A stretch of 64,000 nt of DNA, taken from NCBI GenBank assembly GCA_964571845.1, contig CAZNDM010000087.1:16376-80375 (forward strand). Direction: 5' to 3'. Shown here piece after piece: positions 36,360 through 56,333 of the stretch. Made by a program: the position numbers and the translations under genes. The notes below the pieces were generated by a model. The model worked only from the letters and a program-made list of their open reading frames with translations. It made no database searches and was not told the origin of the DNA. Within the stretch, counting starts at the first letter, position 1, and the number at the start of each line of letters is the position of its first letter. The stretch is from an uncultured bacterium (GTDB lineage: Bacteria; Hydrothermota; Hydrothermia; B15-G9; WFZT01).

Positions 36360-36416
36360 AAACGAGCCCGGGGCTGTTTGGGAAAGTTGTTAATCATTTT
36401 AATGGGAAAACACTGT

Positions 36417-36446
36417 CTTTATCCCCTTCCGCTTTGCGGGAGGAGA
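36417..36446. repeat. Copy D of the GC-rich hairpin repeat family (CCTTCCGC, loop TTT, GCGGGAGG)
   Basis: ctttatccccttccgctttgcgggaggag. It shares tttatcccct(c/t)ccgc with copy B and ccgctttgcgg with the hairpin at 56190-56212. Confidence 0.5.
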
Positions 36447-36588
36447 TGATGAAGATCTTTATACCTCTTCAAGGCATAAAGAGGAATAGGTGGGGCAGTG
36501 CAAAACATTGTGGAGGTTGAAATCCCATTTGTATTTTCTCAAAGGAATCAATTGACCTGTTCAGGGAAAATGAGTTAGAATAAATCTG

Positions 36589-37842
36589 ATGAGAAAAATC
36601 ATCGGAACACTCATAAAAATTTCACTCATCACTCCGTTTGTTCTGTCAGGAAAATTGTATTTTCTTTCAACCCAGCTCGTACCGGTGGAAGAGTCAGAAT
36701 GGTTTAGAAAGAATGTGCTATCCAGCTTCGAGACGAAATATGGGATAAAAACAGTCTTCATCGGATCGAGCTACGGTGAATTTCAGGACAGGATTACATC
36801 TGAATACAGGTCGGGCCGTGGCAAAATCGATCTTACTGCCGGTCTTTCAAGTGACTATGAAGGGATTTCCGATGCGTTCCTCCCCATGAACGATTTCATG
36901 AGGAAACTCCAGGTAAACTTCGTCCCATCTGCAATCCGGTACTTAAAAGTGGACGGGAAAGTGGTTTATGTCCCGTGGCTCCAGACAACCTATATTTTTG
37001 TATGCAACAGGAAGGCACTCAAATACCTGCCCAAAGGAGCGGATATCAACAATCTGACATACGAGGAGTTGCTCCAGTGGGTAAAAAATGTGGAAGATGC
37101 AACCGGGAGAAAGCTTTTTGGCTTACCTGCAGGTCCCCGTGGACTGCTCCACAGGTTTATACACGGGTACCTTTACCCCTCTTTTACGGGAGCACAGATC
37201 CTGCACTTTGATGACGCATCAGGTGTGAAGATGTGGCTGTATTTTCAGAATCTATGGAAACACACAAATCCAGGCTCTTCCGTATGGGAGAAGATGGATA
37301 CCCCCTTACTTAGCGAAGAGGTGTGGATAGCCTGGGACCACATATCGAGGCTTAAAAATGCAATTATAGAGAAACCTGACCAATTTGTTATTTTCCCTGC
37401 GCCGGCAGGACCCGCTGGAAGAGGAATACTCCAGGTCCTCGTTGGGCTGGGTGTTACTTCATACTCAGACAGGAAAGACGAAGCCAAAAAACTGATTGAA
37501 TACCTCCTGACTCCTGAGATTCAGAAGAAGATGCTCGAAGGCACGGGATTTATGCCGGTTATAACCGATGTCAAATTTGAAGAAAAGAATACACCCACAG
37601 CCATGATCTACAGAGGTGTCTCTGTACAGAGTGCGAAGAAGGATTTGATAGTCTCCTTCATTCCCGGAGGTCTTGGCCAGAGAAGTGGCGAATTTACAAA
37701 GATTTACCGCGATGCGTTTAGAGAGATCGTCCTCAAAAAGAAAAACCCCTCGAGTATCCTGAAGTTTTATGGTGAAAAATTGAGGAAGCTCTACAGGGAA
37801 ACAGGGGCACGACTCCCATACCCCGATTATGAGATCAAATGA
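36589..37842 (+). CDS. ABC transporter substrate-binding protein (solute-binding protein family 1, sugar type)
   Basis: 417 aa. N-terminal signal/anchor. The MalE-like SBP_bac_1 fold is my reading from overall similarity; the gene sits immediately upstream of two MalFG-type permeases and a MalK-type ATPase. Confidence 0.65.
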   Translation: MRKIIGTLIKISLITPFVLSGKLYFLSTQLVPVEESEWFRKNVLSSFETKYGIKTVFIGSSYGEFQDRITSEYRSGRGKIDLTAGLSSDYEGISDAFLPMNDFMRKLQVNFVPSAIRYLKVDGKVVYVPWLQTTYIFVCNRKALKYLPKGADINNLTYEELLQWVKNVEDATGRKLFGLPAGPRGLLHRFIHGYLYPSFTGAQILHFDDASGVKMWLYFQNLWKHTNPGSSVWEKMDTPLLSEEVWIAWDHISRLKNAIIEKPDQFVIFPAPAGPAGRGILQVLVGLGVTSYSDRKDEAKKLIEYLLTPEIQKKMLEGTGFMPVITDVKFEEKNTPTAMIYRGVSVQSAKKDLIVSFIPGGLGQRSGEFTKIYRDAFREIVLKKKNPSSILKFYGEKLRKLYRETGARLPYPDYEIK

Positions 37843-38668
37843 GACCCCTTATCTGTTACTCGCACCATTAATTCTATACATCCTTTTTTTCTTTTTGAGT
37901 CCATTCGGTAGCGCCATAAAACTCGCATTTTTCAACGATTCAGGTAGCTTTACCCTGAAGTATTTCTCTGAGACCTTAAAAGACATAAGGTTTTATGCAG
38001 CTCTCAAATATACCGTCCTCTTTGCACTAACCATAATTCCCTTACAGCTTGTAACTGCATTCTTTGTTGCACTTTTTATAACAAAAAGCGGGAACAGCTG
38101 GCTCATGTTCGTTGCATCGATCCCCCTTGCCATATCAGACCTTGCCGCAGGCCTTATTTTCCTTGCCATATTTAGCGAAAGTGGATTTCTGAATTCCTTC
38201 CTTTATACACTCGGTATAATTGACAAACCTTTTTATTTTCTATCCTTTCAGAATACCTGGCTTCTTTTTTTAACAGTTGTGATAGCTGAACACTGGAGAG
38301 CTACATCGATTGTGCTCCTGATCCTCGTTGCAGGGCTTCAAATGATCGAGAAGGATTTCAACGACGCTGCAAGTATATTTGGGGCAAATTTCTTTAAAAA
38401 GACCTATTTTGTAACACTACCCCTCCTGAAGCCCTCAATACAATCTGCACTTATCATCAGAACGATCTTTGCGTTTCAGATGTTCGCAGTTGTACTTGCC
38501 CTTGCAGGTGATATGATCCCGGTTTTATCAGGTGAAGCTTACTTCTGGTATTCTCTTTACAGGAACCCGCACATCGCCTCTGTCTATGCGCTCATAATCA
38601 TCTTTATCTCTATCCTTTTTACTCTCATCTATCTCAGGCTATTGAGACACAGGGAGGTACTTCGATGA
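37829..38668 (+). CDS. ABC transporter permease (MalF/UgpA type)
   Basis: 279 aa. Six transmembrane segments and an EAA-like loop. It overlaps its neighbours by 14 and 4 nt. Confidence 0.75.
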   Translation: MRSNETPYLLLAPLILYILFFFLSPFGSAIKLAFFNDSGSFTLKYFSETLKDIRFYAALKYTVLFALTIIPLQLVTAFFVALFITKSGNSWLMFVASIPLAISDLAAGLIFLAIFSESGFLNSFLYTLGIIDKPFYFLSFQNTWLLFLTVVIAEHWRATSIVLLILVAGLQMIEKDFNDAASIFGANFFKKTYFVTLPLLKPSIQSALIIRTIFAFQMFAVVLALAGDMIPVLSGEAYFWYSLYRNPHIASVYALIIIFISILFTLIYLRLLRHREVLR

Positions 38669-39477
38669 AAGTCCTGAAAAAGGTAGCGGAACTAATCTTT
38701 GCAGCTTCAGTTGCCCTGTGGATCCTGCTCCCGATCTATTTCATCACAGTCCTTTCCCTGACGACAAAAAGGGAAATTTTTTCATTTCCCAAGCGTTTTA
38801 TACCTTCTGAGTTTTCCCTTGAAGTGCTCAGATTTTTCGTGGAATCCCATGGAACAGTTCGCTCTTTATTAAACAGCGTTATCGTAGCGTTATTCACAAT
38901 AGTCGTTGTCCTCGTTATCTCTCTTCCTGCCGCTTACGGGCTTTCAAGGTACAGGTTTAAGGGAAGAGACTCCATAATGCTTTTTATCCTGACATCGAGA
39001 ATGCTCCCCATACCACTTCTCGCCATACCATTAACCAATCTTTACATAGCCATAAGACTCTACGACAATCTTCTCGGAGTTGCATTCCTCCATGCAGCCA
39101 TGGCAATGCCATTTGCAATAATCATTTTGACGGGCATATTCGTAAAAATATCATCAGACTATGAAGAGGCTGCCTGGATTTTCGGAGCTTCAAAAATGCA
39201 GACTTTTATCAGAGTTACCCTTCCCCTCGCCCTTCCGGGAATAACAGCCATGCTGATTTTCACTTTTATCACTTCCTGGAACGAGGTTTTTGCCGCGAGT
39301 ATCCTGACAGTAGAAAATAGAACCCTTTCAGCCCATGTTCTTAATGTGATGCAGGCATCCCCTATTTATTTCAAGTATGCAGCAGGATTTTTCCTCTCAA
39401 TTCCAGCAATAATTTTTATATTTCTCATCAGAAACTATCTGTTCAACATGTGGGGAGGTTTTCAGAGTGAAAAGTAA
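38665..39477 (+). CDS. ABC transporter permease (MalG/UgpE type)
   Basis: 270 aa. Multi-transmembrane protein with the EAA motif region ASKMQTFIRVTLPLALPG. Confidence 0.75.
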   Translation: MKVLKKVAELIFAASVALWILLPIYFITVLSLTTKREIFSFPKRFIPSEFSLEVLRFFVESHGTVRSLLNSVIVALFTIVVVLVISLPAAYGLSRYRFKGRDSIMLFILTSRMLPIPLLAIPLTNLYIAIRLYDNLLGVAFLHAAMAMPFAIIILTGIFVKISSDYEEAAWIFGASKMQTFIRVTLPLALPGITAMLIFTFITSWNEVFAASILTVENRTLSAHVLNVMQASPIYFKYAAGFFLSIPAIIFIFLIRNYLFNMWGGFQSEK

Positions 39478-40537
39478 AGGTATTAGACTTCAAAATGTCT
39501 TAAAAAAGTTTGGTAAAAATGTCGTCTTGAAAAACATAAACCTTGATGTCAAACCCGGCGAATTTCTTGTTCTGCTTGGTCCTTCAGGATGTGGAAAAAC
39601 AACGACTCTCAGACTCATTGCAGGTGTCGAGAAAGTGGATTCGGGCAGAATATTCATTGGCGAAAGAGATGTAACAGACCTCCCTCCACAGAAGCGTAAT
39701 GTTTCGATGGTTTTCCAGAATTATGCCATCTTCCCTCACATGAATGTGTATGACAACATTGGTTTTGGATTGAAAATGCGGGGTGCTGACAAAGAGACCA
39801 TAAGGGAAAAGGTCATTGAGGTCTCAAAGTTATTGAAGATAGAAGATCTGCTCGACAGGTTTCCCTCACAATTATCAGGTGGTCAGAGACAGAGGGTAGC
39901 AGTTGCCCGTGCCCTTGCAACACCTTTTGATGTCCTCCTCATGGATGAGCCCCTTTCCAACCTCGATGCACTCCTGCGGGCAGAGATGAGAGCTGAGCTC
40001 AAAAAACTTCATCAAAAGTTTATGCACACGGTGGTTTATGTAACCCACGATCAGGTTGAAGCCCTCACTCTTGGAAACAGAATTGCGGTAATGTTCGATG
40101 GAGAAATCCATCAGGTAGGGACACCTGAAGAAATCTACGAATTCCCCGAAAACACCCGTGTGGCGCGTTTCATTGGAACTCCACCCATGAACCTACTCAG
40201 TGCCAGAATCACCGACAATGTCATGGTGGGCAAGACCACTTTCCCCCTTTCGAAAAAAATCGTGGATCTTTTGAAAAGTCTCGGGGTAAAGGAATTTGTC
40301 ATTGGATTCAGGCCGGAATATGTGAGGTTTGATGAAAAGGGGATAAGAGGGAAAATTGTGCTAAAAGAAAATATCGGCCACAACGAAATCCTGAACATCC
40401 AGTTTGAAAACAATGTAATCAAGGCAATTACAAGAAGGGGAGAGATAACGAGAGAAGAAATAAATTTCCACATCCCGGAGGAAAATCTAAGAATATTCAT
40501 CAACGGAAAACTTCTCAAATCCCCTCACACTTCTTGA
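39467..40537 (+). CDS. ABC transporter ATP-binding protein (MalK/UgpC type with a C-terminal TOBE-like domain)
   Basis: Walker A GPSGCGKTT, signature LSGGQRQRVAVARAL, Walker B LLMDEPLSNLDA. Confidence 0.85.
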   Translation: MKSKGIRLQNVLKKFGKNVVLKNINLDVKPGEFLVLLGPSGCGKTTTLRLIAGVEKVDSGRIFIGERDVTDLPPQKRNVSMVFQNYAIFPHMNVYDNIGFGLKMRGADKETIREKVIEVSKLLKIEDLLDRFPSQLSGGQRQRVAVARALATPFDVLLMDEPLSNLDALLRAEMRAELKKLHQKFMHTVVYVTHDQVEALTLGNRIAVMFDGEIHQVGTPEEIYEFPENTRVARFIGTPPMNLLSARITDNVMVGKTTFPLSKKIVDLLKSLGVKEFVIGFRPEYVRFDEKGIRGKIVLKENIGHNEILNIQFENNVIKAITRRGEITREEINFHIPEENLRIFINGKLLKSPHTS

Positions 40538-40982
40538 AAGAACAATTCACCTATACCATAAATGACAGGGGAACGGCTCAAGATTAAGAAAACTCAATGA
40601 TGGTTCTCTTCCTTTGATCTGCTCATTCCCGGAACGGGAACCGATGCTTAAAGACTTTTCATTTTACCTGAAAAGCGGGAAATAGACTCTACTCACGATT
40701 TCACAAACCTCGCTCACGCTCTGATACTGAAATCCATAGAGGTTGCAAAAGGGCTCCAACTCCTACTTACTTTGAAATATTTGTAGGAAATCCCCAGTTG
40801 AGATCATCCGTAAAATGCTATGGGGAAAGGAGGGATTGAAATTTTTTTATTTTCACATCGAAGTGAAATGGCATTGTGTAAGAGGCTCCATTAATCTCCG
40901 TCCCCGCTCATGTAAATGTTGTGGCGGAGGATAAAGGTGAAAGCAAAAGTCAGATTTGACGGGGAAGCAATGAGTGCCTTTT

Positions 40983-41026
40983 CACCCTCTCCTCAATCCT
41001 TTCCCCGCGCCGGGAGGGGAGGTTGT
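40983..41026. repeat. Copy A of the GC-rich hairpin repeat family
   Basis: caccctctcctcaatcctttccccgcgccgggaggggaggttgt. The 16-mer cgggaggggaggttgt is identical to copy B at 56015-56030. Confidence 0.5.
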
Positions 41027-41270
41027 CGATACACTTTGCAGTCAAAGTACAACAAAAAAATTCTTCTCCCACTTTGTGGTTAAAGCGATTGCCTGCTCCA
41101 AAGAGGGAGAAAACCGCAGGTGGCTGAAAGTGACGGAAGAATTGTGAGTGAGTCATGTAAACCTTCCGATACAACAGGATTGAAATTGTAGGTGAATTTC
41201 CGTGAGCAGAAAGTGAAAAATAAGTTTGTAAATAAAAAATACTTAATTTTCAACACCATCAGTAAGGGGG

Positions 41271-41299
41271 TTGACAGTGCGAGGCCTCCAATTTAGAAT
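41271..41299 (+). promoter_or_regulatory. Sigma-70-like promoter TTGACA, 17-nt spacer, TAGAAT, for the peroxiredoxin gene
   Basis: TTGACA at 41271-41276, a 17-nt spacer, TAGAAT at 41294-41299. The AGGAGG ribosome-binding site is at 41325-41330 and the ATG at 41338. Confidence 0.5.
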
Positions 41300-41337
41300 A
41301 ATTCCAGATTAAAAAACATTAAAAAGGAGGTTGTAAA

Positions 41338-41982
41338 ATGGAGGCAAGAATCCCTCTTATCGGAGAAAAGTTCCCTGAGATGGAAGTCGTAACAACTCAC
41401 GGAAAGATTAAGTTACCTGAGGCTTACGAGGGGAAATGGTTCATTCTCTTCAGCCACCCTGCTGACTTCACACCTGTTTGCACAACTGAGTTCGTCGCAT
41501 TCCAGAAAAGGTACGATGAGTTCAGAAAGCTCAATACAGAGCTCATCGGTCTGAGTATTGACCAGGTCTTCTCACACATTAAATGGGTCGAGTGGATCAA
41601 GGACAATCTTAATGTGGAAATCCAGTTTCCAATTATTGCAGACGACACAGGCGCTGTTGCCAACAAACTCGGACTCGTCCATCCAGGTAAGGGCACAAAC
41701 ACGGTGAGAGCCGTCTTTATTGTGGACCCCAAGGGGATAATCAGGGCTATCCTCTATTATCCTCAGGAGCTGGGCCGTAACATGGACGAAATTCTCAGAA
41801 TGATCAAAGGCTTCCAGGTTTCTGACGAACATGGTGTGGCTATTCCAGCAAACTGGCCAAACAACGAGCTCATTGGTGATGAGGTAATTATACCTCCAGC
41901 AGCAGATGTGAAAACAGCTGAGGAGAGACCCAAACAGTACGATTGCTACGACTGGTGGTTCTGTCACAAGAAACTTTCATAA
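41338..41982 (+). CDS. Peroxiredoxin (Prx6/1-Cys or archaeal-type with C-terminal resolving cysteines)
   Basis: 214 aa. Peroxidatic Cys motif FTPVCTTE, and the C-terminal CYDWWFC. Confidence 0.85.
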
Positions 41983-42001
41983 GTAAAGATTGAAAATCGA
42001 A

Positions 42002-42040
42002 GGGGGGGGCGGGGCGCGCGGCACGCGCGCCCCGCCCCCC
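42002..42040. terminator. Long perfect GC hairpin (stem about 18 bp, 3-nt loop) downstream of the peroxiredoxin gene, with no U-tract
   Basis: ggggggggcggggcgcgcg gca cgcgcgccccgcccccc. It lies 20 nt after the stop codon and no T-run follows it on the plus strand. Confidence 0.4.
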
Positions 42041-42149
42041 AATTCTATCCCCCTCCCACCATCCTCCCTCACACACCTTTTTGCCCCGCTTGACATCATC
42101 CCTTGTAAAATTTTAAACTTGCCTTTGTCACTCAAAAGGGAGGTCGGTT

Positions 42150-44228
42150 ATGAGAAAATTGTTGTATATGTTATTAATAACAGGAGGGATTCTATTTGCT
42201 CAAACTAACCTTGCTCCCAATCCGGGTTTCGAAAACTGGGCGGATGAAAACACACCTGAAAACTGGTCTTATGAGAGTGGAATAACTGTTTCACGCTGTA
42301 ATGTTACAGATTCTGTATATTCAGGATCATACTCCGCAAGAGTTTTGTTAACTACAGATAATCAAAGTAACACCGATTTTGTATCCGATTCTATAGACGT
42401 TTTGCCAAACACCGAATACACATTCAGAGTTCATATTTTTGACAATGATCCAGCTGGTAGAGTCAGATTGGTAGTTCATTGGTTTGATTCCAATATGCAA
42501 GCCCTTCAATCTTCTTATGGAACTTACTCGTCGGATAATTCTGACTGGCAGGTGGTAGAATACACGGTAACATCTCTCGCAGATGCAGCTTTTGCAAAGC
42601 TTGGTTTCCGATTTTATGACTCAAACAGCTGGGATGGAGATGCTCTCTTTTACCTCGATGAGATGAGCTTCACTTCTCAAAATGATCCTCCCTCCATTTC
42701 AAATATTTCGCACTCACCTTCAAATCCCACATCATCTGATGATGTTACTGTAACGGCAGATATTTCTGATCCTGATGGCGACAATATAACAACTGATTAC
42801 CTTAGCTATTCCACAGACGGAGGTAACAACTGGACACAGGTAAATCACTCAAGCGTTTCGGGAAACACATACACTTATATCATTCCTGCACAGTCTGACG
42901 GGACAAATGTCCGTTATTACATTTATGCAGAAGATGAACACGGCGCCGGGACAACATCCTCAACATACTCATACACTGTAAGTGATAATCCTCTTCAAAA
43001 CCCTATAATCAATGAAATAATGTATCATCCAGTGCCGGATGACATCTCTTTCGAATATGTGGAGATATACAATCCCAACAATGTAAGCTTTGATGTCAGT
43101 AACTGGGTTTTCACAGATGGAGAAAGTGATTTCACGATCCCTGACGGTATCCAGATTCCGCCTTATGGATTCCTGGTGATCGCCAGGGATACCTCGCAGA
43201 TCAGGTCTCAATACGGTCAGGCAGGTCTCAAATTTCTTGGTGATGGAGACGACATACTTCTTGGAAATGCCGGATTCGCTCTCTCAAACAGTGGTGAAGA
43301 AGTTTCATTACTGGATGATAACTCAAACACAATCGATCAGGTTGCTTATGACGATGGAGATCCATGGCCCACCGAGCCAGACGGTGATGGTCCTTCACTT
43401 GGATTGAAGAATCCGGAGCTTGATAACTCTGTTTCAGTGAACTGGTGTTCTGAGGCAGGAGATGATCCTGTATATGGTGGAACACCGGGAGCTGCTAATG
43501 AGTGCAATAATACCGTTGAAAATGGCGGCTTTGAGTCATGGAACAATGGGATCCCTGTTTCCTGGAATCTTGAAACCAATGTTACAGTTGCGGAGGAAAC
43601 CGGTACAAAGCATCGTGGAAACAGTAGTGTAAAAATTTCGGTGGGTAATGACGGTGAAGGGATTTATGAAAATATAGAACAGGTATCAAGTGGTGAAAAA
43701 TACCACTTCCATGCCTGGCTTTATGCACTTGGAGAAGTTTCTGGACATGCCAGTGTAGGCGTGGAGCTGAGGTTTTACAATAGTTCATGGAATTATATCG
43801 AATCACATGGTCCCTACTATCCCAGCGGCACGGGAACCTGGAAAAGGGTTGCTGTTAGAGACACTATACCCAATAATGCGACGAAAATGAGAATCTATAT
43901 TATTGGTTACTCAACCGGGAAGGGAGATGCCGGGTATGCTGATGATATTACCTTCATCTCACAGGGAGCTGTTGCAACGGGAGTCAACGAAGAAACGGGT
44001 TATACAGGCAGCATCGTAATTACTCAGAGTCCGGGTAAGTTAACCTTTGTCATTCCGGGAAAATGCGCCTCAAGGCTTGAGATCTTTGATATTACCGGGA
44101 GAAAGATTAAAGTGTTAACCGTCCGTGGAAAGAAAACCATATCGACAGGATCGTTTTCACCCGGTGTTTACTTCGCTGTGTTGAAAGACAGGAAGGTTAA
44201 AAGCGGGAAGTTTGTGATAATCAGGTAG
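42150..44228 (+). CDS. Secreted T9SS cargo protein: two CBM4/9/22-like carbohydrate-binding modules, a lamin-tail domain and a T9SS C-terminal sorting domain
   Basis: 692 aa. Signal peptide. PNPGFENW and NGGFESWNNG are CBM-like starts. The lamin-tail region is INEIMYHPV...YVEIYNP...VSNWVFTDG. The C-terminal sorting domain is LEIFDITGRKIKVL...GVYFAVLK...GKFVIIR. The codon usage is visibly more A/T-ending than in neighbouring genes. Confidence 0.65.
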   Translation: MRKLLYMLLITGGILFAQTNLAPNPGFENWADENTPENWSYESGITVSRCNVTDSVYSGSYSARVLLTTDNQSNTDFVSDSIDVLPNTEYTFRVHIFDNDPAGRVRLVVHWFDSNMQALQSSYGTYSSDNSDWQVVEYTVTSLADAAFAKLGFRFYDSNSWDGDALFYLDEMSFTSQNDPPSISNISHSPSNPTSSDDVTVTADISDPDGDNITTDYLSYSTDGGNNWTQVNHSSVSGNTYTYIIPAQSDGTNVRYYIYAEDEHGAGTTSSTYSYTVSDNPLQNPIINEIMYHPVPDDISFEYVEIYNPNNVSFDVSNWVFTDGESDFTIPDGIQIPPYGFLVIARDTSQIRSQYGQAGLKFLGDGDDILLGNAGFALSNSGEEVSLLDDNSNTIDQVAYDDGDPWPTEPDGDGPSLGLKNPELDNSVSVNWCSEAGDDPVYGGTPGAANECNNTVENGGFESWNNGIPVSWNLETNVTVAEETGTKHRGNSSVKISVGNDGEGIYENIEQVSSGEKYHFHAWLYALGEVSGHASVGVELRFYNSSWNYIESHGPYYPSGTGTWKRVAVRDTIPNNATKMRIYIIGYSTGKGDAGYADDITFISQGAVATGVNEETGYTGSIVITQSPGKLTFVIPGKCASRLEIFDITGRKIKVLTVRGKKTISTGSFSPGVYFAVLKDRKVKSGKFVIIR

Positions 44229-46521: not shown

Positions 46522-46545
46522 CGGTCAAAAATTGACCGCAAGTCA
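46522..46545. promoter_or_regulatory. Overlapping palindromes GGTCAA-aaa-TTGACC and TTGAC-cgcaa-GTCAA, plus an extra GGTCAA half-site at 46502-46507, in the trmI-topA intergenic region: candidate operator
   Basis: Read directly from gggtcaatttttcgaaataccggtcaaaaattgaccgcaagtcaattaac, which lies just upstream of topA on the minus strand. Confidence 0.35.
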
Positions 46546-46597
46546 ATTAACATTACAGCTCTCCCCCGAAAATTTGAGATCAGAATATCGGGCACTT

Positions 46598-47362: not shown

Positions 47363-47823
47363 TAAATATTCTCGACAACCGAAAGGGTTTCCAGAAGCGA
47401 CAGGACAGCGTCTCTTCCTTTGTTACCGAGTTTGCCCCCTGCTCTATCTTCAGCCTGATCAAATGTATCAGCAGTGATCACACCATAGGCAATGGGAATG
47501 TTTTCATCAAGCATAACGCGGGCAATACCTTTTGTTACCTCTGCTGCAACATAATCAAAATGGGGAGTCTCGCCTCTGATAACAGCAGAGAGCGCGACAA
47601 GACCGTCGTATCTACCCGACTTTGCAAGCTTTTTCAAGACAAGTGGAACTTCAAAAGCTCCGGGAACCCAGAAGATGTCCACGAGATCCAGGTCACCACC
47701 AAACTGTTCAATTGCCTCAAGTGCACCATCAACCAGTCTGGATGTGATAAAATCGTTAAATTTGGAGGCAACTATTCCAATTCTTTTACCTGCTGCACTA
47801 ATTTTCCCTTTGTATTCAGCCAT
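47362..47823 (-). CDS. ribH: 6,7-dimethyl-8-ribityllumazine synthase
   Basis: 153 aa. Sequence is RibH-like throughout (GIVASKFN...VPGAFE...[13 protein letters not shown]). Confidence 0.9.
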
Positions 47824-49072: not shown

Positions 49073-49202
49073 TATCCAATCCTCGTTCTGGTTTTTTAAA
49101 ATTATACTTCATTGTGGATTTTTTCTCAAAAATGCAGTTACAGAGAGATTAGCCAGAATGAAAAGGCTTCCTGCAAAGCTGTCTCGATTCCTCTGAATAT
49201 GC

Positions 49203-50408
49203 TCAGAAGTTTCTCTCTCGTTCCGTGAGTCTAAAAATTTCCTCCATCATTTTTCTGTAAGCGTCTCGAAGATCAACTTTTCTCCTCGCCATAACCCGCC
49301 TGGCCGTCTCTATGGCTTTATCGAGCCTGTAGGTAACAAATCCGCCACTTCCGCCCCAGGCAAACGAAGGGATAAATTTCGGAGGGAAATCTCCACCGTA
49401 AACATTACTTGAGAAGCCCACAACCGTGCCGGTATTAAACATCGTATTAATCCCGCTCTTCGAATGGTCCCCCATCATCAGTCCCACAAACATCTCGCCC
49501 GTGTTGACCCACTCGCCATCAATGAATATCTTCACACTGGAATAATTATTTTTTAGATCACTGTTGTTCGTATCAGCACCAAGATTAACCCACTCACCAA
49601 GATACGCATGACCGAGAAATCCATCGTGCTGCTTATTGGAAAATCCCTGAATCACTGACTCTTCGACCTCGCCACCCACCTTGCAAACTGGTCCTATACT
49701 CGTGCCTTCGTAGATCTTCGCCCCCACTTTTATCCGTGACTTCCTGCCTATATAAACTGGTCCAATAACTGTTGCATTGGGCATAATAACCGCATCTCTA
49801 TCGATCACAATGGGTCCCTCAAGCCCATCGAGCACAACTCCGGGATAAACAGTTGCTCCCTCCTCGATCACCACATGACCAAGAATGTGCACACCGTCAA
49901 ATACCTTGCCTCTCACTCCTTCTTCAAAATACCTCGAATCATTAACAATTTCACCAGAATTGGCATGAACGAGCTCGTAAAGATAGGTAAAGGTTTTCAC
50001 ACTCCCCATTTCCCTCTCATTCAGAGCTTTGCACCCGGAGAAGACACCTTCGTCATCAAAAAAGCCGTCAACTGACTCCACCCTGCAAGCAAGAATTTCT
50101 CCATTTTTCGTAATCGCTTCTCCAGTTTTTAACGAATTAATGAGCTCTACAAATTGGGAATCCGGTATAACCCTTGAGTTGACAAGTACAACATCCCTGA
50201 TTCCATAGTCATTGACCTGATAATCGGGAAAGTTTTCTCTAACAACCTCCTCGAGATACTTACGCGTGAAAAGAGCGGGTTTTCCCGTTAGTTTCTCGTA
50301 TTTCTCAAATATCCTGAAAATTCCCACTCTCAGCTCCCAGACAGGGTGGCTGAGGCTCAACGGATACAACTTTCTCCATTTTTGATCTTCAAACAACGCT
50401 ATCATCAT
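49203..50408 (-). CDS. Left-handed beta-helix (hexapeptide-repeat) protein, putative sugar nucleotidyltransferase/acyltransferase of the 'alternative GlmU-like' type
   Basis: C-terminal hexapeptide repeats (VIGPVYIGRKSRIKVGAKIYEGTSIGPVCKVGG). It sits adjacent to nagB and overlaps it. The ATG at 50406-50408 is my preferred start (there are also ATGs at 50414 and 50405); the track start at 50426 is a TTG. Confidence 0.45.
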   Translation of the reverse strand: MMIALFEDQKWRKLYPLSLSHPVWELRVGIFRIFEKYEKLTGKPALFTRKYLEEVVRENFPDYQVNDYGIRDVVLVNSRVIPDSQFVELINSLKTGEAITKNGEILACRVESVDGFFDDEGVFSGCKALNEREMGSVKTFTYLYELVHANSGEIVNDSRYFEEGVRGKVFDGVHILGHVVIEEGATVYPGVVLDGLEGPIVIDRDAVIMPNATVIGPVYIGRKSRIKVGAKIYEGTSIGPVCKVGGEVEESVIQGFSNKQHDGFLGHAYLGEWVNLGADTNNSDLKNNYSSVKIFIDGEWVNTGEMFVGLMMGDHSKSGINTMFNTGTVVGFSSNVYGGDFPPKFIPSFAWGGSGGFVTYRLDKAIETARRVMARRKVDLRDAYRKMMEEIFRLTERERNF

Positions 50409-51150
50409 ACTCATACTCCCTTTCAAGTAAAGATGCTGCCTCCTGATCCAGAACCAGAATGGCTTTCGGATGAAGCTGCATAATCGAGGCAGGGACCATC
50501 GCTGTTATGGGTCCCTCCACTGTCTTCTTAACTGCTTCTGCCTTTTTCTTCCCTGAGGCAAGAAGTAGTAACATTCTTGCCTCCATAATTGTCCCCACAC
50601 CCATGGTTATCGCCTGTCTTGGAACTTTGTTTACATCACCGCCAAAAAATCTTGCATTGTCCTCTATCGTCTCTTTTGCAAGTGTTTTTATCCTTGTCCT
50701 TGAGCCAAGCGAGGAGCCCGGTTCGTTGAATCCGATGTGTCCATCTCTCCCAATACCGAGAATCTGAAGGTCTATGCCACCGAATTTCTTTATTCTCTCC
50801 TCATACCACTGACAGTAAGCCTCAACATCCGGGACTGTTCCATCCGGTATATGGACATTTGAAGGATTAACATTGATGTGTTTGAATAGATTTTCCCACA
50901 TAAATGTGTGATAGCTCTGGGGATGATCTTTTGGAAGTCCTATGTATTCATCAAGGTTAAAAGTTACTATCTTCGAGAAATCGAGCCCTTCTTCCCGGTG
51001 CATTCTGATGAGTTCCTTGTAAAGACCGATTGGGGTAGAACCTGTGGCGAATCCAATGACAGCGTCTGGCTTTCTCTCAATAAGTTCTCTGACAAACTGC
51101 GCCGCCCTCCTGGACATTGAATCATAGTCTCTGGTAATGATCACTCTCAT
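50389..51150 (-). CDS. nagB: Glucosamine-6-phosphate deaminase
   Basis: 253 aa. NagB motifs (GSTP, LDEY, GIGRDGHIGFNEPGSS). The ATG at 51148-51150 is verified, with a GGAGGTGA ribosome-binding site. Confidence 0.9.
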   Translation of the reverse strand: MRVIITRDYDSMSRRAAQFVRELIERKPDAVIGFATGSTPIGLYKELIRMHREEGLDFSKIVTFNLDEYIGLPKDHPQSYHTFMWENLFKHINVNPSNVHIPDGTVPDVEAYCQWYEERIKKFGGIDLQILGIGRDGHIGFNEPGSSLGSRTRIKTLAKETIEDNARFFGGDVNKVPRQAITMGVGTIMEARMLLLLASGKKKAEAVKKTVEGPITAMVPASIMQLHPKAILVLDQEAASLLEREYEYDDSVV

Positions 51151-51199
51151 GGTCTCACCTCCGCTCTCGGATTTTAATTATTCTCTATTTTGCAAATTG

Positions 51200-51736
51200 T
51201 CAAGAAGACCTGCGGATCATGCTGGCTGGGCACCTATCCCTCATCTTGCATGTCTTACATGAAACTTTGTGGAAATACACAACAAATGGTGTCATCATGG
51301 TGAAAAGAATCCACAGAAGAAGTACCCTCCTGTCCACAACAATAGCAAAAATACCAAGTATTAATGGCAGTAGAGTCCCTATCCCCCATGTCAACCCTGC
51401 AAGCTTTATCCCGAGATCATAATCCCCGCTTTTCTCCCGAAAAAATAGTGATGAAAGTTTACCCCATCCTGTCGAGCACCACCTGCCATAGTAATAACAA
51501 TGTGTACAGAGATGTTTTCTCAGTACAAAAACGAGCATCACATAGAGAAACAATAAATACACGGCTGCGACAAGTGGAAAGCCAGAAATCTTTAAAGGAC
51601 TCATCACAAAATATCCAACCAAAAAGTAAACAATAAAGAGGACATTTTGCCCCACAATCCACCACCAGGGATAACTTTCATAGATTTTCATTTGTAATCC
51701 TCCACATTTTTTATTAGAATTATACGGATTTTCCAA
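51200..51736 (-). CDS. Cys-rich integral membrane protein (four transmembrane helices; CTHCYYYGRWC and CKTCKMRDRC motifs)
   Basis: 178 aa with hydrophobic helices. Two CxxC-containing clusters are predicted on the same face, suggesting metal or disulfide chemistry. The start may instead be the internal Met at MKIYESYPWWW. Confidence 0.4.
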   Translation of the reverse strand: MENPYNSNKKCGGLQMKIYESYPWWWIVGQNVLFIVYFLVGYFVMSPLKISGFPLVAAVYLLFLYVMLVFVLRKHLCTHCYYYGRWCSTGWGKLSSLFFREKSGDYDLGIKLAGLTWGIGTLLPLILGIFAIVVDRRVLLLWILFTMMTPFVVYFHKVSCKTCKMRDRCPASMIRRSS

Positions 51737-51750
51737 TTCGGAGGAAAGAC

Positions 51751-53097
51751 ATGATTTTACTTAAAAATTGCAAATATATTGCCACATTTGACGACAGCGG
51801 CACCGAGCTGGTTGATCATGACATTCTTATCGATGGAAATGTTATAAAAAGGATTGATAAAAACATTGAAGTCCAGGGAGAGACTATTGATTGCAGTCGC
51901 CACATCGTCATTCCTGGCCTCGTCAACACCCATCATCATTTCTTTCAGATATTAACGAGAAATCTCAAGGGTGCCCAGAATGCAAAGTTGTTTGACTGGC
52001 TCGTTTACCATTATCCCATCTGGAAAAATATCGATGAAGAGGCAATCTACTATTCCACAAAACTGGCAATCGTTGAGCTGATGAAAACGGGGACGACAAC
52101 CACATCGGATCATCATTACCTCTATCCTGCAGGTGTTTCAGGTGATGTGATGTCCATTCAGATAAATGCGGCAAAGGAGCTTGGTATCAGATTTGCACCC
52201 ACCCGTGGATCCATGACAATGGGAGTAAAACAGGGCGGTTTGCCACCTGAGGAACTCGTTGAACCTGACGACAGGGTCATCAAAGACATGCAGAGGGTAA
52301 TAGAAGACTTCCACGACCCATCAGATTTCTCAATGACCCGCATTATTCTCGCTCCATGCAGTCCCTTCAATGTTACCCTCGACCTTATGAAGGAAACAGA
52401 GAAACTTGCCCGTTCCTACGGCGTATTTTTACACACCCATCTTGCAGAAACCCTTGATGAGGAAGAGTATTGCCAGGAAAAATACGGGAAAAGACCCCTT
52501 GCCCTTATGGAAGAATTGAACTGGCTTGGTCCCGATGTCTTTTTTGCACACGGTATATGGTTTAATGACGATGAACTTACGCTCCTGAAGGACACGAAAA
52601 CCGGAGTCTCCCACTGCCCATCTTCCAATATGAGACTCGGCTCTGGGATTGCAAGGATTAGAGAAATGATCGATATGGGCATCAGAGTAGGCCTCGCTGT
52701 TGATGGATCAGCGTCCAATGACTCATCTGACATGATTGGTGAAGTGCGTAACGCACTGCTTCTCCAGCGGGTAAAGTACGGACCTGGTGGACTTACGGCA
52801 AGGGAAGCCCTCCAGATTGCCACACGGGGTGGCGCAAGTTTGCTCGGTTTTGACAAAATCGGACAGATTAAGGAAGGTTTTGCCGCTGACCTCGCTCTCT
52901 TTGACCTAAGCCGTCTCCAGCATGCAGGCAGCCTTAATGATCCCGTTGCCTCCATCATCTTTACTGGCTTCAACCATGAGGTGGATTACTTAATCATCAA
53001 CGGAAAGGTACGCGTGAAAAACGGCAGGGTCACAGGTATAGACGAAGAAGAGCTCACAAACAGGGTAAATGAGATTTCAAAAAAACTGGTTGAATAA
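51751..53097 (+). CDS. Amidohydrolase-superfamily deaminase/chlorohydrolase (guanine/8-oxoguanine deaminase, SsnA/MtaD-like)
   Basis: 448 aa. Metal-ligand pattern HHH near the N-terminus (LVNTHHHFFQ), then HTHLAET and AVDGSASND with the C-terminal Asp. The sequence resembles MtaD/8-oxoguanine deaminase. Confidence 0.65.
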   Translation: MILLKNCKYIATFDDSGTELVDHDILIDGNVIKRIDKNIEVQGETIDCSRHIVIPGLVNTHHHFFQILTRNLKGAQNAKLFDWLVYHYPIWKNIDEEAIYYSTKLAIVELMKTGTTTTSDHHYLYPAGVSGDVMSIQINAAKELGIRFAPTRGSMTMGVKQGGLPPEELVEPDDRVIKDMQRVIEDFHDPSDFSMTRIILAPCSPFNVTLDLMKETEKLARSYGVFLHTHLAETLDEEEYCQEKYGKRPLALMEELNWLGPDVFFAHGIWFNDDELTLLKDTKTGVSHCPSSNMRLGSGIARIREMIDMGIRVGLAVDGSASNDSSDMIGEVRNALLLQRVKYGPGGLTAREALQIATRGGASLLGFDKIGQIKEGFAADLALFDLSRLQHAGSLNDPVASIIFTGFNHEVDYLIINGKVRVKNGRVTGIDEEELTNRVNEISKKLVE

Positions 53098-53204
53098 TCA
53101 GACTGCCACAGAAAAAAGCAAACTACCACGAACTGTTGATTTCAACTTTAATAAGGTTTAAACCGTTAACCAAGGTGGTTTTCAAAACACCTGTTATATT
53201 TGAT

Positions 53205-53233
53205 TGACAAGTTGTAAAAGGTCAATGTAAAAT
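53205..53233 (+). promoter_or_regulatory. Sigma-70-like promoter TTGACA, 17-nt spacer, TAAAAT
   Basis: TTGACA at 53205-53210, a 17-nt spacer, TAAAAT at 53228-53233. The GGAGG ribosome-binding site is at 53251-53255 and the ATG at 53262. Confidence 0.5.
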
Positions 53234-53261
53234 GACCTGCAACATAAAAAGGAGGTAATCT

Positions 53262-55412
53262 ATGTGGCGTAAGTTGTTGGTAGTAACACTTGTGCTGGCA
53301 GTTGCCGGCATAAGTAAAGCAGAAGTAAAGAGTGTAAAAAGGGCAGTAATAACAAGCGCCAGAAGTGCTGACAACTGGACACCAGGGAGCCATGGAGTAC
53401 TACCTGAGGGTCAGGCTAAAGGTGACACACTTTATTACTATACCTCTGTTGATAACGACGCAATTGGATTAACAAATGGTGGGACATACCAGGCAGCAAT
53501 TAAGCTCACCCCAACAGAGCTCGGTCAGTATGGAGGGTGGTCAGTAACACAGGTTCTCTTTTATCATCACGAGTCAGGTACACATTCAGGACAGGTAATT
53601 GTTTATGCCGCAGGTACAGATACAACGCCAGGCGACATTCTTGCAACAGCGCCATACACGGCAACTGGTAACGGGTGGGTCGTTGTGGACCTCCCGGTGC
53701 CTGGTGTTATGATTGATCCTGCAAGTGACCTCTGGATCGCTGTCGAGGTAACTCACGCTCAGGGCGAATACCCGATCTCAGTTGACGCTGGACCAGCAGT
53801 TGCTGGCAAGGGCGACTGGGTCTATGCCCCGGGCGCCATTCCGTGGGCAGAACTCATTGATTATGGTTTAAACTACAACTGGAATATTGCAGCAGTCGTC
53901 GAGCAGGCAGGCGATTCTCTCGATCCTCTACCCCCAACAGATCTTACAGCTTACTCTGACTACACAATGCCCACATCCATGGCTGTCTCCTGGACAGATC
54001 CTTCACACTACTTCGGTGGAGACACTTTAACTGACTTCTATATCGAGATCTGGGTTGCCGGTGGAAAAGACACGACATTTGCTGACTCAGTACCAGCAGG
54101 CACGCAGGCTGACACTATCTCTGGACTGACAGACGGCACCCTCTACACAATTCTCTTAAGAGCCGTCGATGCCAACGATTCAGCCAGCCCATTTGTTAGC
54201 ACAACATGGTATGCTGGCGGTTCACCATATCCCGCACCCCCGCAGAATCTCGTTGCAAATGTTGTTGATGAAAGCCATGTCGAATTAACATGGATTAACC
54301 CTGCAACCCAGGCTGATGGCACACCACTCGATGACCTTGCAGGTGTCAATATCTATGTTGACGGTTCCCTTGCATATACCCATCCCACGACAGCAGTGGG
54401 TATGCCCGAAGTTGACACAATAGAGGTTGTACCCGGAAGTCACAATATTTATGTAACCGCCTATGACAACGAGACACCGGTCCATGAGTCCGATCCTTCC
54501 AACCAGGTCCATGTGGTCACCAATGTTCACGCAGGGGGACCTGATGGATATGGATATATTTTCAGAGATTCGGATTATCCCGGTGGCCCAACATTCAACT
54601 GGATTGACATCACACAGGTGGGAACACCCCATTCACTTGGTGATGACGATAATGTCCTTGTTCAGCTCCCGGCTCCTTTCCCCTTCTACGGCCAGAATCT
54701 CACCCAGCTCTACATCGTGTCTAATGGATTTTTATCCACGGACAACACTACTGAGTTCAGCAATGATTCTCTACCAACGGATGACCCAGTAAACCTGATT
54801 GCTCCTTTCTGGGATGATTTGAATCCATCTTCTGGCGGAATGATTTATTCATACCACGATACCACAAATAATGCCTTCATAGTGGAATGGTATCAGGTAC
54901 CTCATTATGGTAGTGGTGGTCCTTATACCTTTGAAGTGATCCTTTACTTCAACACAGGTGACATCCTCTGTCAGTACCTCGATCTTGATGAGGGACGCGT
55001 AAACTCTGCTACCATAGGAATTCAGGCAAATCAGGGTGCAAATAACTATTATCTCCTCTATACATACAATGGAAATCCTCTTGAGCCCCATGACAGTCTT
55101 GCTCTCCTCTTTACCTATCAGACGAGTGTCGGCGAGGACAACAATGTGGGTAAGTACATGCTGATGGGTACGGCAACAAATCCTGTGAGAGGATTTTCAA
55201 CAATAACATTCGCCGTTCCCAGGTCTGGAAATGTGAATCTTTCACTTTACGACATCATGGGTAGAAAGGTAAAAGACATTTTCAGCGGCAGAGTGAACGC
55301 AGGTAAGCATACAGTGAGATTTGACGCAACCGGTCTTGCAGGCGGAGTTTACTTTGTGAAGATGGTGGCTGGAGATTACACAGGTGTGGCAAAGGTTCTT
55401 GTTGTGAAGTAA
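53262..55412 (+). CDS. Secreted T9SS cargo protein with fibronectin-III-like domains and a T9SS C-terminal sorting domain
   Basis: 716 aa. Signal peptide LVVTLVLAVAGISKA. FN3-like segments (PPTDLTAY...WTDP; PAPPQNLVANVVDESHVELTWINP). The C-terminal sorting domain is NVNLSLYDIMGRKVKDIFSG...GGVYFVKMVAGDYTGVAKVLVVK. Codon usage is biased towards A-ending codons. Confidence 0.65.
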   Translation: MWRKLLVVTLVLAVAGISKAEVKSVKRAVITSARSADNWTPGSHGVLPEGQAKGDTLYYYTSVDNDAIGLTNGGTYQAAIKLTPTELGQYGGWSVTQVLFYHHESGTHSGQVIVYAAGTDTTPGDILATAPYTATGNGWVVVDLPVPGVMIDPASDLWIAVEVTHAQGEYPISVDAGPAVAGKGDWVYAPGAIPWAELIDYGLNYNWNIAAVVEQAGDSLDPLPPTDLTAYSDYTMPTSMAVSWTDPSHYFGGDTLTDFYIEIWVAGGKDTTFADSVPAGTQADTISGLTDGTLYTILLRAVDANDSASPFVSTTWYAGGSPYPAPPQNLVANVVDESHVELTWINPATQADGTPLDDLAGVNIYVDGSLAYTHPTTAVGMPEVDTIEVVPGSHNIYVTAYDNETPVHESDPSNQVHVVTNVHAGGPDGYGYIFRDSDYPGGPTFNWIDITQVGTPHSLGDDDNVLVQLPAPFPFYGQNLTQLYIVSNGFLSTDNTTEFSNDSLPTDDPVNLIAPFWDDLNPSSGGMIYSYHDTTNNAFIVEWYQVPHYGSGGPYTFEVILYFNTGDILCQYLDLDEGRVNSATIGIQANQGANNYYLLYTYNGNPLEPHDSLALLFTYQTSVGEDNNVGKYMLMGTATNPVRGFSTITFAVPRSGNVNLSLYDIMGRKVKDIFSGRVNAGKHTVRFDATGLAGGVYFVKMVAGDYTGVAKVLVVK

Positions 55413-55438
55413 GGGAAGTAGAAATTAAAGAAAATAAA

Positions 55439-55480
55439 GGGGGGCCGCGCCCGTACGGGCGCGGCCCCCCTTATTTTTTA
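55439..55480 (+). terminator. Rho-independent terminator: a 15-bp GC stem followed by a T-tract
   Basis: ggggggccgcgcccg ta cgggcgcggcccccc, then ttatttttta. It lies 27 nt after the stop of the 53262..55412 gene. Confidence 0.75.
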
Positions 55481-55987
55481 CACCCTTCCAAATCCATTTC
55501 TTACACTACTCGCAAATTTGAATTTGAAAAACGTCTTCTACTTTCATATGGTGAAATCTCACAAAGGCAGTAATAAAGCTGTCCCATAAAATTGCTCTGA
55601 ATGTAAGGGCAGATTTTTGACTTCCTCCCCACAGTAGCACAGGGAAAATCCTTACCATTTCCCTTGCACAAGAGGGGTATCCGGCGGAAGTTTCCACTGC
55701 CTATTCCGCAAACACATGTCCATGAGGGCTTCTACAATTCTCCCTCCCATAAACGGGAGATGGCAGGTGGATATTTCCATAAAGCAGTATTGGGTGGATA
55801 CCCACTCCTTACATCAGTCTCTTTAATGGGTGAGGAGGGGGTTCGAAAAAGCAATGTGATTTTTAACCTCACCCCGCAGTGTGTTAGCATTGTGGGGTGT
55901 TTTCCCAATGACCTTCTTCCTCACAAAGTTGGAAAGAACTGAGGAGGGGGAAAAATTATCGGAAAAAGCGGTGAATGTTTTTTTTCT

Positions 55988-56031
55988 GCCCTCCCCTTTA
56001 TCCCCTCCCGCAAAACGGGAGGGGAGGTTGT
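55988..56031. repeat. Copy B of the GC-rich hairpin repeat family: a perfect 10-bp stem TCCCCTCCCG, loop CAAAA, CGGGAGGGGA
   Basis: gccctcccctttatcccctcccgcaaaacgggaggggaggttgt. Confidence 0.55.
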
Positions 56032-56189
56032 GGGTGGACTCCCGCAAGACGGGCGGCGGCTGGAAGTGTCCTCATGCAGAGTGGTGGAGGTTTGGATGGA
56101 TTCTCTGACACATAGTTAGAGGTTGTAGGTAATCCCTTTTACTCGTGGGAAGTTAATCTTTCCGAATTTGCATGAGGGTAATGCAACCT

Positions 56190-56212
56190 CCCACGCCGCT
56201 TTGCGGCGTGGG
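56190..56212. repeat. Related GC hairpin CCCACGCCGC, loop TTT, GCGGCGTGGG (10-bp stem) that shares ccgctttgcgg with copy D
   Basis: cccacgccgctttgcggcgtggg. Confidence 0.5.
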
Positions 56213-56267
56213 GAAGGATTAAGGAGAGGGCAGAATGGGCCCAGGGAAAAGCAGGAGAGCTCTCTTC

Positions 56268-56333
56268 GCCCTCCCCTTTGTCCCCCCGAAAGCGGGAGGA
56301 GAGTTGAAAGCATCCCTCCCGCAGGCGGGGAGG
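56268..56333. repeat. Copy C of the hairpin repeat family, followed by a second hairpin CCCTCCCGC-ag-GCGGGGAGG
   Basis: gccctcccctttgtccccccgaaagcgggaggagagttgaaagcatccctcccgcaggcggggagg. It shares gccctccccttt(a/g)tcccc with copy B. Confidence 0.5.

Follow-up and report, generated by a model that had tools for sequence, protein, structure and literature searches.

Three spacers free of open reading frames (ORFs), R1 (36360-36588), R2 (40538-41337) and R3 (55413-56624), interrupt a gene-dense 64,000-nt stretch (~45% GC) of contig CAZNDM010000087.1 from an uncultured WOR-3 bacterium (this whole stretch is hereafter the window, and all coordinates are window positions). Our reading, to which we give a probability of about 0.65, is that they harbor a multi-copy non-coding intergenic repeat with the architecture of the Escherichia coli BoxC, PIT (potential intrastrand triplex) or triplex motif (TM) elements, which persists as selfish or structural DNA acting at the DNA level. 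The presence of the motif is statistically well founded; compensatory changes preserve its hairpin, and a mirror block preceding the hairpin co-varies with the hairpin arm. Nested and decayed composites of ~200-650 bp built from this motif account for much of R1, R2, and R3, and the array diverges far more than the flanking genes between two near-identical assemblies.

The repeat core can be written as CCCTCCCCT-N3-TCCCCTCCC-loop-GGGAGGGGA-GGTTG, where N3 is CAA, TTA, or TAA. Blocks one and two form an exact homopyrimidine mirror repeat and the third is the Watson–Crick partner of the second; under standard triplet rules, the first block is a parallel Hoogsteen strand for the hairpin. The C-rich strand reads Hoogsteen block, pyrimidine arm, purine arm, and the G-rich strand has a 9-nt pyrimidine (Y) stem, a loop, a 9-nt purine (R) stem, a 3-nt loop, and a 9-nt mirror R stem (TCCCCTCCC-N5-7-GGGAGGGGA-N3-AGGGGAGGG). 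Class II motifs of ITxF (Holder et al. 2015) consist of a Y stem, a complementary R stem, and a mirror (reverse-Hoogsteen) R stem on one strand, with stems of 6-15 nt, at most one mismatched triplet, and loops of 1-6 nt. Scanned in this way, the window contains one perfect 9-triplet class II motif, copy B (55989-56025, minus strand, loops of 7 and 3 nt), and no motif as perfect occurred in 40 Markov-simulated windows. Copy B falls within the ITxF definition, its first loop measuring 7 nt with a 9-nt stem and 5 nt when the Watson–Crick stem is drawn with 10 bp. Copy A passes the scan only with two mismatched triplets, and copy C, broken in the window by a 2-nt deletion, has a single mismatched triplet in the near-identical ENA strain (L064; L-numbers label loci on compared contigs).

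All the sites singled out in a preliminary description of the window, namely copies A, B, C, and D and a hairpin at 56190-56212, were found in place, and the blocks they share are exact: CGGGAGGGGAGGTTGT between A and B (16/16), GCCCTCCCCTTT(A/G)TCCCC between B and C (17/18), CTTTATCCCCT(C/T)CCGC between B and D (15/16), and CCGCTTTGCGG between D and 56196-56206 (11/11). That description had credited each of them with an 8-10-bp G/C stem. Folding against shuffled sequences upheld this for B (10 bp, z = -2.6), D (8 bp plus an extension, z = -3.6, -21.2 kcal/mol), and 56190-56212 (10 bp, z = -4.1), but not for A, which has no good stem (z = -1.3), nor for C, whose stem is imperfect. Its claim that the family is restricted to long non-coding regions was sustained, the sole coding-region match (57180, two mismatches) having no hairpin behind it. 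It had overlooked the mirror-repeat block, the way modules of two types pair back to back, and the larger composites.

Alignment of the copies, including the reverse complement of the 56190 region, revealed a conserved 5′ box (GCCCTCYCCTTWATCC) before the hairpin and GGAGGTTG after it. The 5′ box has five matches in the window with up to two mismatches, four of them inside the spacers, against 0.17 expected, and none of 100 shuffles reached five, a test that is partly circular since GCCCTCYCCTTWATCC was derived from these same copies. Taken alone, the 3′ box (CGGGAGGGGAGGTTG, up to three mismatches) has four matches against 1.6 expected, which is not significant. A covariance model (model R1) built solely from repeat units of other contigs, and independent of the window copies, recovered 56002-56037 (E = 1e-12), 36423-36457 (E = 1.6e-5), and 40998-41032 (E = 1.4e-4), together with 56181-56212 (E = 1.6e-3) and 55728-55758 (E = 0.011) on the minus strand. 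Across the whole window, it gave no match at E < 0.02 outside the three spacers, which make up 3.5% of its length.

The motif recurs well beyond this genomic region. A metagenome scan with the pattern CCCTCYCCTYWRTCC-N12-35-GGAGGTTG, whose middle part is not forced, retrieved 38 loci, and in ~28 of them the unforced middle is CCTCC(C)-loop-GGGAGG, the same hairpin. Seven of the 38 come from the JGI sample that also holds the window's organism. Six array-bearing contigs correlate with the window in tetranucleotide composition at r = 0.84-0.90, a range comprised within that of the window's own 3-kb pieces (0.76-0.95), and other loci belong to organisms with 53-59% GC and r < 0.5. Arrays occur on at least nine further WOR-3-like metagenome contigs, with the genome assignment of those from the same sample uncertain. 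Apart from the repeats, the new loci have no overlap with the window, and similar arrays lie in unrelated gene contexts and in both orientations relative to the flanking genes. The preliminary description had regarded coincidence as more likely if no copies recurred elsewhere, a case that fails because they do so on many other contigs. A scan of viral contigs gave one match, probably by chance, and literature searches with the raw sequence strings returned only eukaryotic papers.

Comparison of these loci defined a second module class, made of the box CCCCCTCCT and a 15-bp hairpin. In ten copies of this long hairpin, 8 of the 15 pairs exhibit compensatory changes; pairing holds in 92.8% of the cells but falls to 51-64% on sliding the partner, and the observed covariation was reached by no shuffle. 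The mirror block tracks the hairpin arm in three variants, CCCTCCCCT|TCCCCTCCC, CCCCCTCCT|TCCTCCCCC, and CCCTCTCCT|TCCTCTCCC. In class 2, the mirror relation extends over 9/9 nt, against 5-6 nt for a direct repeat or an alternative pairing; judging from few independent lineages, the class-2 block would be a mirror rather than either of these. The retention of the mirror block by all three variants argues, on comparative grounds, for maintenance of the whole three-block design rather than of the hairpin alone.

On WOR-3-like contigs, a class-2 module is followed by a linker of 5 or ~37-45 nt and a class-1 module on the opposite strand, so that both stand back to back. Outward of each module come 2-6 progressively decayed units, each consisting of a small hairpin whose loop is often UUCG- or GCAA-like and of GGTTGTRGGTGR, and the arm closes in a conserved sequence, ..TTTTCCGCAAAGTGRAAGGGGAAATGATC..AAAATATTTTTCGAAC. 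L038, L043, L055, and L061 have such pairs of unlike modules (class-2 CCCCCTCCT with the long hairpin and class-1 CCCTCCCCT with a short one), and the window has degenerate ones at 56184-56305 and 40896-41032; L004, from a WOR-3 relative, has a degenerate pair between convergent genes.

Strain comparison places most of the local variation in the arrays. A near-identical ENA metagenome contig of 67.6 kb, as well as Logan and JGI contigs, share 99.6-99.9% identity with the window. Over 3.3 kb compared with the ENA strain, 15 of 16 differences fall within 56226-56440, i.e. 215 nt of array. The ENA contig breaks within R3, at window position 56213; the start of the JGI contig, at 56481, lies just beyond the right end of the array.

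The closest known counterpart is the BoxC/PIT element of Escherichia coli, reportedly described by Bachellier and Gilson in the 1990s and by Hoyne and Maher in 2000. The window family has the same three-block layout and block sizes, with a first loop of 3-7 nt, and a 3-nt loop that is TTA, TAA, or TTG where E. coli has TTA or CCG. Holder et al. (2015, PMC4666352) described this element, also named TM_ECO, as a 9-nt C stem, a 3-6-nt loop, a 9-nt G stem, a 3-nt loop, and a 9-nt G stem, with 23 copies in strain MG1655 that are always intergenic and show no strand bias; five inverted pairs occur among them, each uniting a type A with a type B motif. The window family likewise recurs at other loci, is intergenic in all its window copies, which lie within ORF-free spacers, is found in either orientation across loci, and is arranged in inverted pairs of two different module types. 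TM_ECO loci are unusually variable, no link of theirs to mobile elements, gene class, or distance was found, and TM_ECO acts neither as a promoter nor as a terminator and leaves RNA polymerase unaffected (PMC4666352). Variability between close strains and a competing G-quadruplex potential on the G-rich strand are further common traits. The two families differ in their stems (TCCCCTCCC/GGGAGGGGA/AGGGGAGGG in the window, with the interrupting base placed elsewhere, against CCCTCNCCC/GGGNGAGGG/GGGNGAGGG), and because the stem letters differ, the window motif does not match the literal TM_ECO consensus 5′-CCCTCNCCC N3-6 GGGNGAGGG N3 GGGNGAGGG-3′. They also differ in the host, a WOR-3 bacterium instead of a proteobacterium, in the long 15-bp hairpin of one module type, and in the extension of the pairs by decaying tails of hairpins and GGTTGTGGGTGG and by a conserved 3′ end into composites of 200-650 bp. 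In one locus from a 57% GC organism (L046, 7023-7107), we observed a window-type module 15 nt away from a literal TM_ECO type B motif (CCCTCTCCC-CCTGC-GGGAGAGGG-CCG-GGGTGAGGG).

A different kind of resemblance is offered by the pneumococcal BOX elements, boxA-(boxB)n-boxC, which are strongly structured modular intergenic repeats with conserved ends and variable internal tandem units and are not known to have a transposase of their own. They resemble the window family in this modularity and in the varying number of units (about four in L028 and six in the window), whereas they share no sequence relationship with it, lack a triplex-type core, and have units far less decayed.

We detected no transposase and no RAYT (REP-associated tyrosine transposase, PF01797-type) among the window ORFs of at least 100 aa that we scanned, nor a Y1 (RAYT) domain in the four ORFs scanned next to arrays of other contigs; the one transposase among these four is of the rve type, in L038. 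This rve (integrase core) transposase gene (L038, 527-1690, minus strand) is convergent with, and ~50 nt away from, the conserved 3′ end of the array. One clear association with a mobile element comes from another organism (assembly UOGL01, r ~0.7), where the doublet is sub-terminal in a 224-bp multi-copy element with ends GTAACTAYTCAGCG, flanked by an 8-bp target duplication in four of seven complete copies; most copies lie at contig ends. We identified this element at L033, L039, L042, L045, L048, L049, L051, L060, and L063, with a triplex-motif module near each end. Inverted ends and 8-bp duplications are hallmarks of the IS66 family (PMC11946415), and the UOGL01 element matches them. Its size, its inverted ends starting with GTAAC.., its 8-bp duplications, its many copies, and its contig breaks recall miniature inverted-repeat transposable elements (MITEs) derived from IS66, a likeness limited to this element: the window composites have only a 10-nt inverted match (GTTCGAAAAA/TTTTTCGAAC), no target-site duplication was seen around them, and no IS66-type transposase was seen. 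The presence of the doublet inside an inverted-end, target-duplicated element also departs from the TM_ECO elements, for which Holder et al. report no mobile link.

These observations lead us to a scenario in which the element acts at the DNA level: a strand left unpaired during replication, transcription, or transposition would fold into the hairpin or the triplex. Tolerated in places where a terminator is followed by the next promoter, the repeat may persist as selfish or structural DNA, multiply when it is duplicated locally, recombines, or hitch-hikes on transposable elements, and have local instability, instead of gene regulation, as its main consequence. Hitch-hiking on miniature transposable elements is shown for the one other lineage just mentioned and might extend to the window family. 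The family is best filed as a new sequence and organizational variant of the BoxC/PIT/intrastrand-triplex-motif class, not as REP/BIME. We consider it doubtful, and clearly less probable, that the WOR-3 composites represent a distinct modular class in which a triplex-forming doublet nucleates outward-decaying hairpin arrays, and that BoxC-type motifs spread as cargo of transposase-mobilized miniature elements, IS66-like in one lineage.

Several points weigh against the proposed DNA-level role or its extension to the window. The TM_ECO triplex is stable in vitro but has not been demonstrated in vivo (PMC4666352), copy B is the sole intact triplex motif in the window, all other modules being degenerate, and, with the departure of the stem from the TM_ECO consensus, homology with BoxC is only putative and convergence on a low-complexity C/T, G/A pattern is possible. 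The tandem units are weakly defined in the window (model E-values from 0.03 to 8), and Tandem Repeats Finder finds no array in R3 because the units are too diverged. The WOR-3 composites lack inverted ends plus target duplications and the window lacks a transposase, the uncertain assignment of the same-sample contigs leaves a high copy number within this genome presumptive, and the excess variation of the array could partly be an assembly artefact, one compared contig ending in the repeat. Hairpin covariation and UUCG- or GNRA-like loops suit an RNA-level role equally well.

Such an RNA-level role is the main rival. The arrays would be transcribed and function as structured RNA, either as a non-coding RNA with many hairpins, as a long 5′ leader or 3′ trailer through which neighboring mRNAs are stabilized or processed, or as a sponge whose GGAGG/CCUCC tracts interact with ribosome-binding sites or with the 3′ end of 16S rRNA. 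The retention of hairpins through compensatory changes and the many UUCG-like or GCAA/GAAA-like loops agree with it, as do the location of the well-kept modules A-D on the sense strand of the flanking genes, the use of GGAGGTTG as the ribosome-binding sequence of the peroxiredoxin (prx) and cupin genes, and the capacity of pyrimidine-type intrastrand triplexes to form in RNA (PMC4666352). The plus strand of 55975-56245 indeed folds far beyond shuffles (z = -6.0), but the minus strand folds at least equally well (z = -7.3), which points to a symmetry at the DNA level. Neither did Rfam yield any match at gathering scores in the whole window, or anything other than noise in R2 and R3 at E up to 10, and no convincing promoter or terminator brackets the arrays. 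Both module orientations relative to genes at other loci, the ~7% sequence difference between two otherwise near-identical assemblies, and the inertness of the E. coli counterpart toward promoters, terminators, and RNA polymerase (PMC4666352) are also difficult to reconcile with an RNA, and we regard this explanation as unlikely. Arrays of binding sites on duplex DNA upstream of promoters, for nucleoid proteins or regulators or acting as insulators, seem less probable still. The plus-strand arms of R1 and R2 do end 1-13 nt before sigma-70-like promoter sites, and a conserved A/T palindrome (AAAATATTTT) marks the element end; yet mirror repeats have no symmetry meaning for proteins that bind duplex DNA, the sequence of the stems is not kept but changes by co-variation, no relation links the genes downstream (among them prx, cupin, a solute-binding protein, and a tRNA), and the E. 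coli counterpart has no link to gene class or distance (PMC4666352).

The REP/BIME label proposed in the preliminary description, i.e. short palindromes recognized and spread by a RAYT, captured the general character of the family, which is dispersed, multi-copy, intergenic, structure-forming, and possibly tied to mobile DNA. Clustered GC-rich imperfect palindromes of alternating orientation are shared with REP, BIME, and REPIN sequences, as are inverted pairs resembling REP doublets and able to form long hairpins. The label itself is hard to maintain: the scans detailed above revealed no RAYT or Y1 domain, the conserved part is a three-block motif of mirror block and hairpin instead of a palindrome with a GTAG-type tetranucleotide head, the mirror block has no REP counterpart, and the two halves of a pair are of different types, all of which makes a REP origin highly improbable. 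Least probable of all, to the point of being negligible, is a chance likeness of G-rich ribosome-binding-site-like tracts and C-rich tracts. The non-significant 3′ box and the sharing of GGAGGTTG(T) by two real ribosome-binding sites would accord with it, but it is refuted by the 5′ box count, by the copies on other contigs, where the same unforced hairpin recurs in ~28 of 38 loci, and by the independent covariance model, which at E < 0.02 matches only the spacers. Readings as G-quadruplexes, DnaA boxes, or a CsrA sponge were also considered from the sequence, with nothing supporting them, and a CRISPR reading found neither a periodic repeat-spacer array nor a CRISPR match at Rfam gathering scores. 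We also dropped a candidate MITE or RNA domain of 252 nt at 55984-56235, which has inverted ends of ~47 nt and nested helices of long range, since its two ends belong to two adjoining back-to-back pairs.

The array of R3 is a composite of ~635 bp (55841-56475) bounded by GTTCGAAAAA and TTTTTCGAAC and made of two back-to-back pairs (~55870-56037 and 56184-56305) with their tails; the leftmost part of the spacer (55480-55840) holds unit-like fragments only. Its left arm (55841-55955, minus strand), recognized by the inverted 10-mer, a repeated 11-mer, and a 5′ box with two mismatches at 55950 on the minus strand, starts with GTTCGAAAAA (55841-55850), the inverted match of 56466-56475, and contains one hairpin at 55870-55899 and another that is decayed, besides the G-box TGAGGAGGGGG (55940-55950). 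The first-pair linker (55956-55988), lying between the G-box and a C-box, is shorter than the ~45-nt linker of L055 and L056. It leads to the intact triplex-type module, copy B (55989-56037, plus strand), with nine perfect triplets and the best model score (E = 1e-12): H block CCCTCCCCT (55989-55997), loop TTA, Y arm TCCCCTCCC (56001-56009), loop GCAAAAC, R arm GGGAGGGGA (56017-56025), and G/T box GGTTGTGGGTGG (56026-56037). The tail that follows (56038-56183, plus strand) appears to comprise four to five decayed units of hairpin and G/T box, to which weak model matches point (56038-56069, 56070-56099, and 56109-56132, E = 1.3-7.9), with GAGGTTGTAGGTAA at 56119; it is collinear with L028, where units are fewer.

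The second pair of R3 begins with a module of the other type on the minus strand (56184-56231), with an exact 5′ box, a hairpin z-score of -4.1, and a model E-value of 1.6e-3. It reads CCCTCTCCT-TAA-TCCTTCCCC, with the hairpin CCCACGCCGC-AAA-GCGGCGTGGG (56190-56212 on the plus strand) and then GGTTG, and its hairpin belongs to the class with compensatory changes in 8 of 15 pairs. The linker (56232-56268) has the ENA contig start (56213) just to its left and separates this module from copy C (56269-56305, plus strand), identified by its 5′ box and by comparison with the ENA strain, in which the 2-nt deletion after 56284 is absent. Decayed units then occupy 56306-56403 (plus strand), including the hairpin CCCTCCCGC-AG-GCGGGGAGG at 56314-56333 (model matches 56347-56382, E = 0.03, and 56313-56346, E = 0.36). 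The conserved 3′ end (56404-56478, plus strand) carries the palindrome AAAATATTTT and finishes in TTTTTCGAAC (56466-56475); it shares 75-77% identity over 80-96 nt with L038, L043, and L061, whose gene contexts differ.

R2 contains a single pair with its arms in a composite of ~425 bp (~40833-41257), stopping 13 nt short of the prx promoter-like site, and unit-like fragments only in its leftmost part (40538-40832). The minus-strand arm (40833-40944) is marked by a 5′ box with three mismatches on that strand and combines an A/T-rich end similar to the conserved 3′ end (at 40833-40856) with a degenerate module A′, whose G-box lies at 40929-40944 and whose hairpin lies at 40896-40929. The linker between the back-to-back modules (40945-40984), ..AAAGTCAGATTTGACGGGGAAGCAATGAGTGCCTTTTCA, is homologous to those of L030, L031, and L055. 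Homology there extends past the 42-nt core to linker plus module (72-75% over 102-117 nt), 40916-41026 aligning to L030 (75% over 102 nt) and L031 (72% over 117 nt). Copy A (40985-41032, plus strand) is a degenerate triplex-type module with a poor stem, CCCTCTCCT-CAA-TCCTTTCCCC-..-GGGAGGGGA (41012-41020)-GGTTG, detected by its 5′ box and the covariance model (E = 1.4e-4). The plus-strand arm (41033-41257) probably consists of decayed units, weakly indicated by GAAATTGTAGGTGA at 41182, and then of a conserved 3′ end (41231-41257, ..AATAAAAAATACTTAATTTTCAACACC) judged by eye similar to those of L038, L043, and L061. R1 retains only a stump, from 36418 to ~36550, ending just before a promoter-like site. 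Sequence, fold, and model (E = 1.6e-5) identify its first part (36418-36457, plus strand) as copy D, a truncated module that has lost the first half of the 5′ box and keeps the spacer TTA, the hairpin TCCCCTTCCGC-TTT-GCGGGAGGAGA (36422-36446), and a G/A-rich tail. The remainder (36458-36550, plus strand) probably represents decayed hairpin units, with a weak model match (36464-36495, E = 4.9) and GGAGGTTG at 36512, the other unit calls being made by eye.

ARAGORN detected no tRNA or tmRNA in R1-R3, and candidate hidden genes in R2 and R3 (ORFs of at least 25 aa) were short, overlapping, and implausible. Small ORFs behind GGAGGTTG (GTG 56030 and TTG 41023) were rejected, the Shine-Dalgarno-like tract being too near and nothing being conserved. 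A promoter scan located the prx promoter-like site of R2 (TTGACA-17-TAGAAT, 41271-41299). In R1, a similar site (TTGACC-17-TAGAAT, 36552-36581) ends 7 nt before the ATG of a solute-binding protein gene (36589) that has no Shine-Dalgarno sequence; its mRNA may be leaderless or nearly so, the host's other genes having strong GGAGG sites. The peroxiredoxin and cupin genes downstream of R2 and R3 share an identical 13-nt ribosome-binding context, AAAAAGGAGGTTG (41321-41333 and 56610-56622). Near-perfect long GC-rich palindromes with 16-23-bp arms lie directly past gene ends at 11826-11871, 41996-42048, and 55431-55478, with no sequence relation to the repeat family. The one at 55431, flanked by runs of T/A on either side, may be a bidirectional terminator, and the palindrome at 42002-42050 has a 2-nt indel and one substitution between near-identical strains.

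Other observations concern the remainder of the window. An 896-aa ORF (25115-27805, minus strand) fuses an N-terminal Ser/Thr protein kinase domain (Pkinase, E = 4e-60) to a full UvrD-type helicase (UvrD-helicase, E = 4e-74; UvrD_C, E = 1e-57), an unusual combination. Two tandem paralogue pairs, at 7373-9740 and 27815-31895 (both on the minus strand), encode two GWxTD-domain proteins and two DUF3857 proteins, one of the latter also carrying a transglutaminase core. The gene of a tricorn-like protease contains a 70-nt direct repeat (33665-33734/34481-34550, 70% identity) that probably reflects PD40 beta-propeller blades. The relatives of the window anchored on RibBA are metagenome-assembled genomes of candidate division WOR-3, and a type IX secretion system (T9SS) sorting domain encoded in the window fits the FCB group. 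At the RibBA-anchored loci of five WOR-3 species representatives, DNA identity is ~77% and synteny is gone beyond the rib/topA block, so that R2 and R3 have no orthologues in those five representatives.

BoxC/PIT/TM repeats became known ~30 years ago, and no account of their function or of how they spread has gained acceptance. The present family extends their architecture to an uncultured phylum of the FCB group (WOR-3) and, judging by composition, to several other lineages, and it includes one clear case of a doublet carried by an element that has inverted ends and duplicated target sites. For the organism of the window, the arrays explain the 0.8-1.2-kb gene-free spacers and break short-read assemblies. 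If the WOR-3 composites were a distinct modular class and BoxC-type motifs traveled as cargo of miniature elements, this would explain how BoxC/PIT repeats multiply, a long-standing question, and the covariation of the mirror block would imply selection, across phyla, for the formation of a triplex or H-DNA itself.

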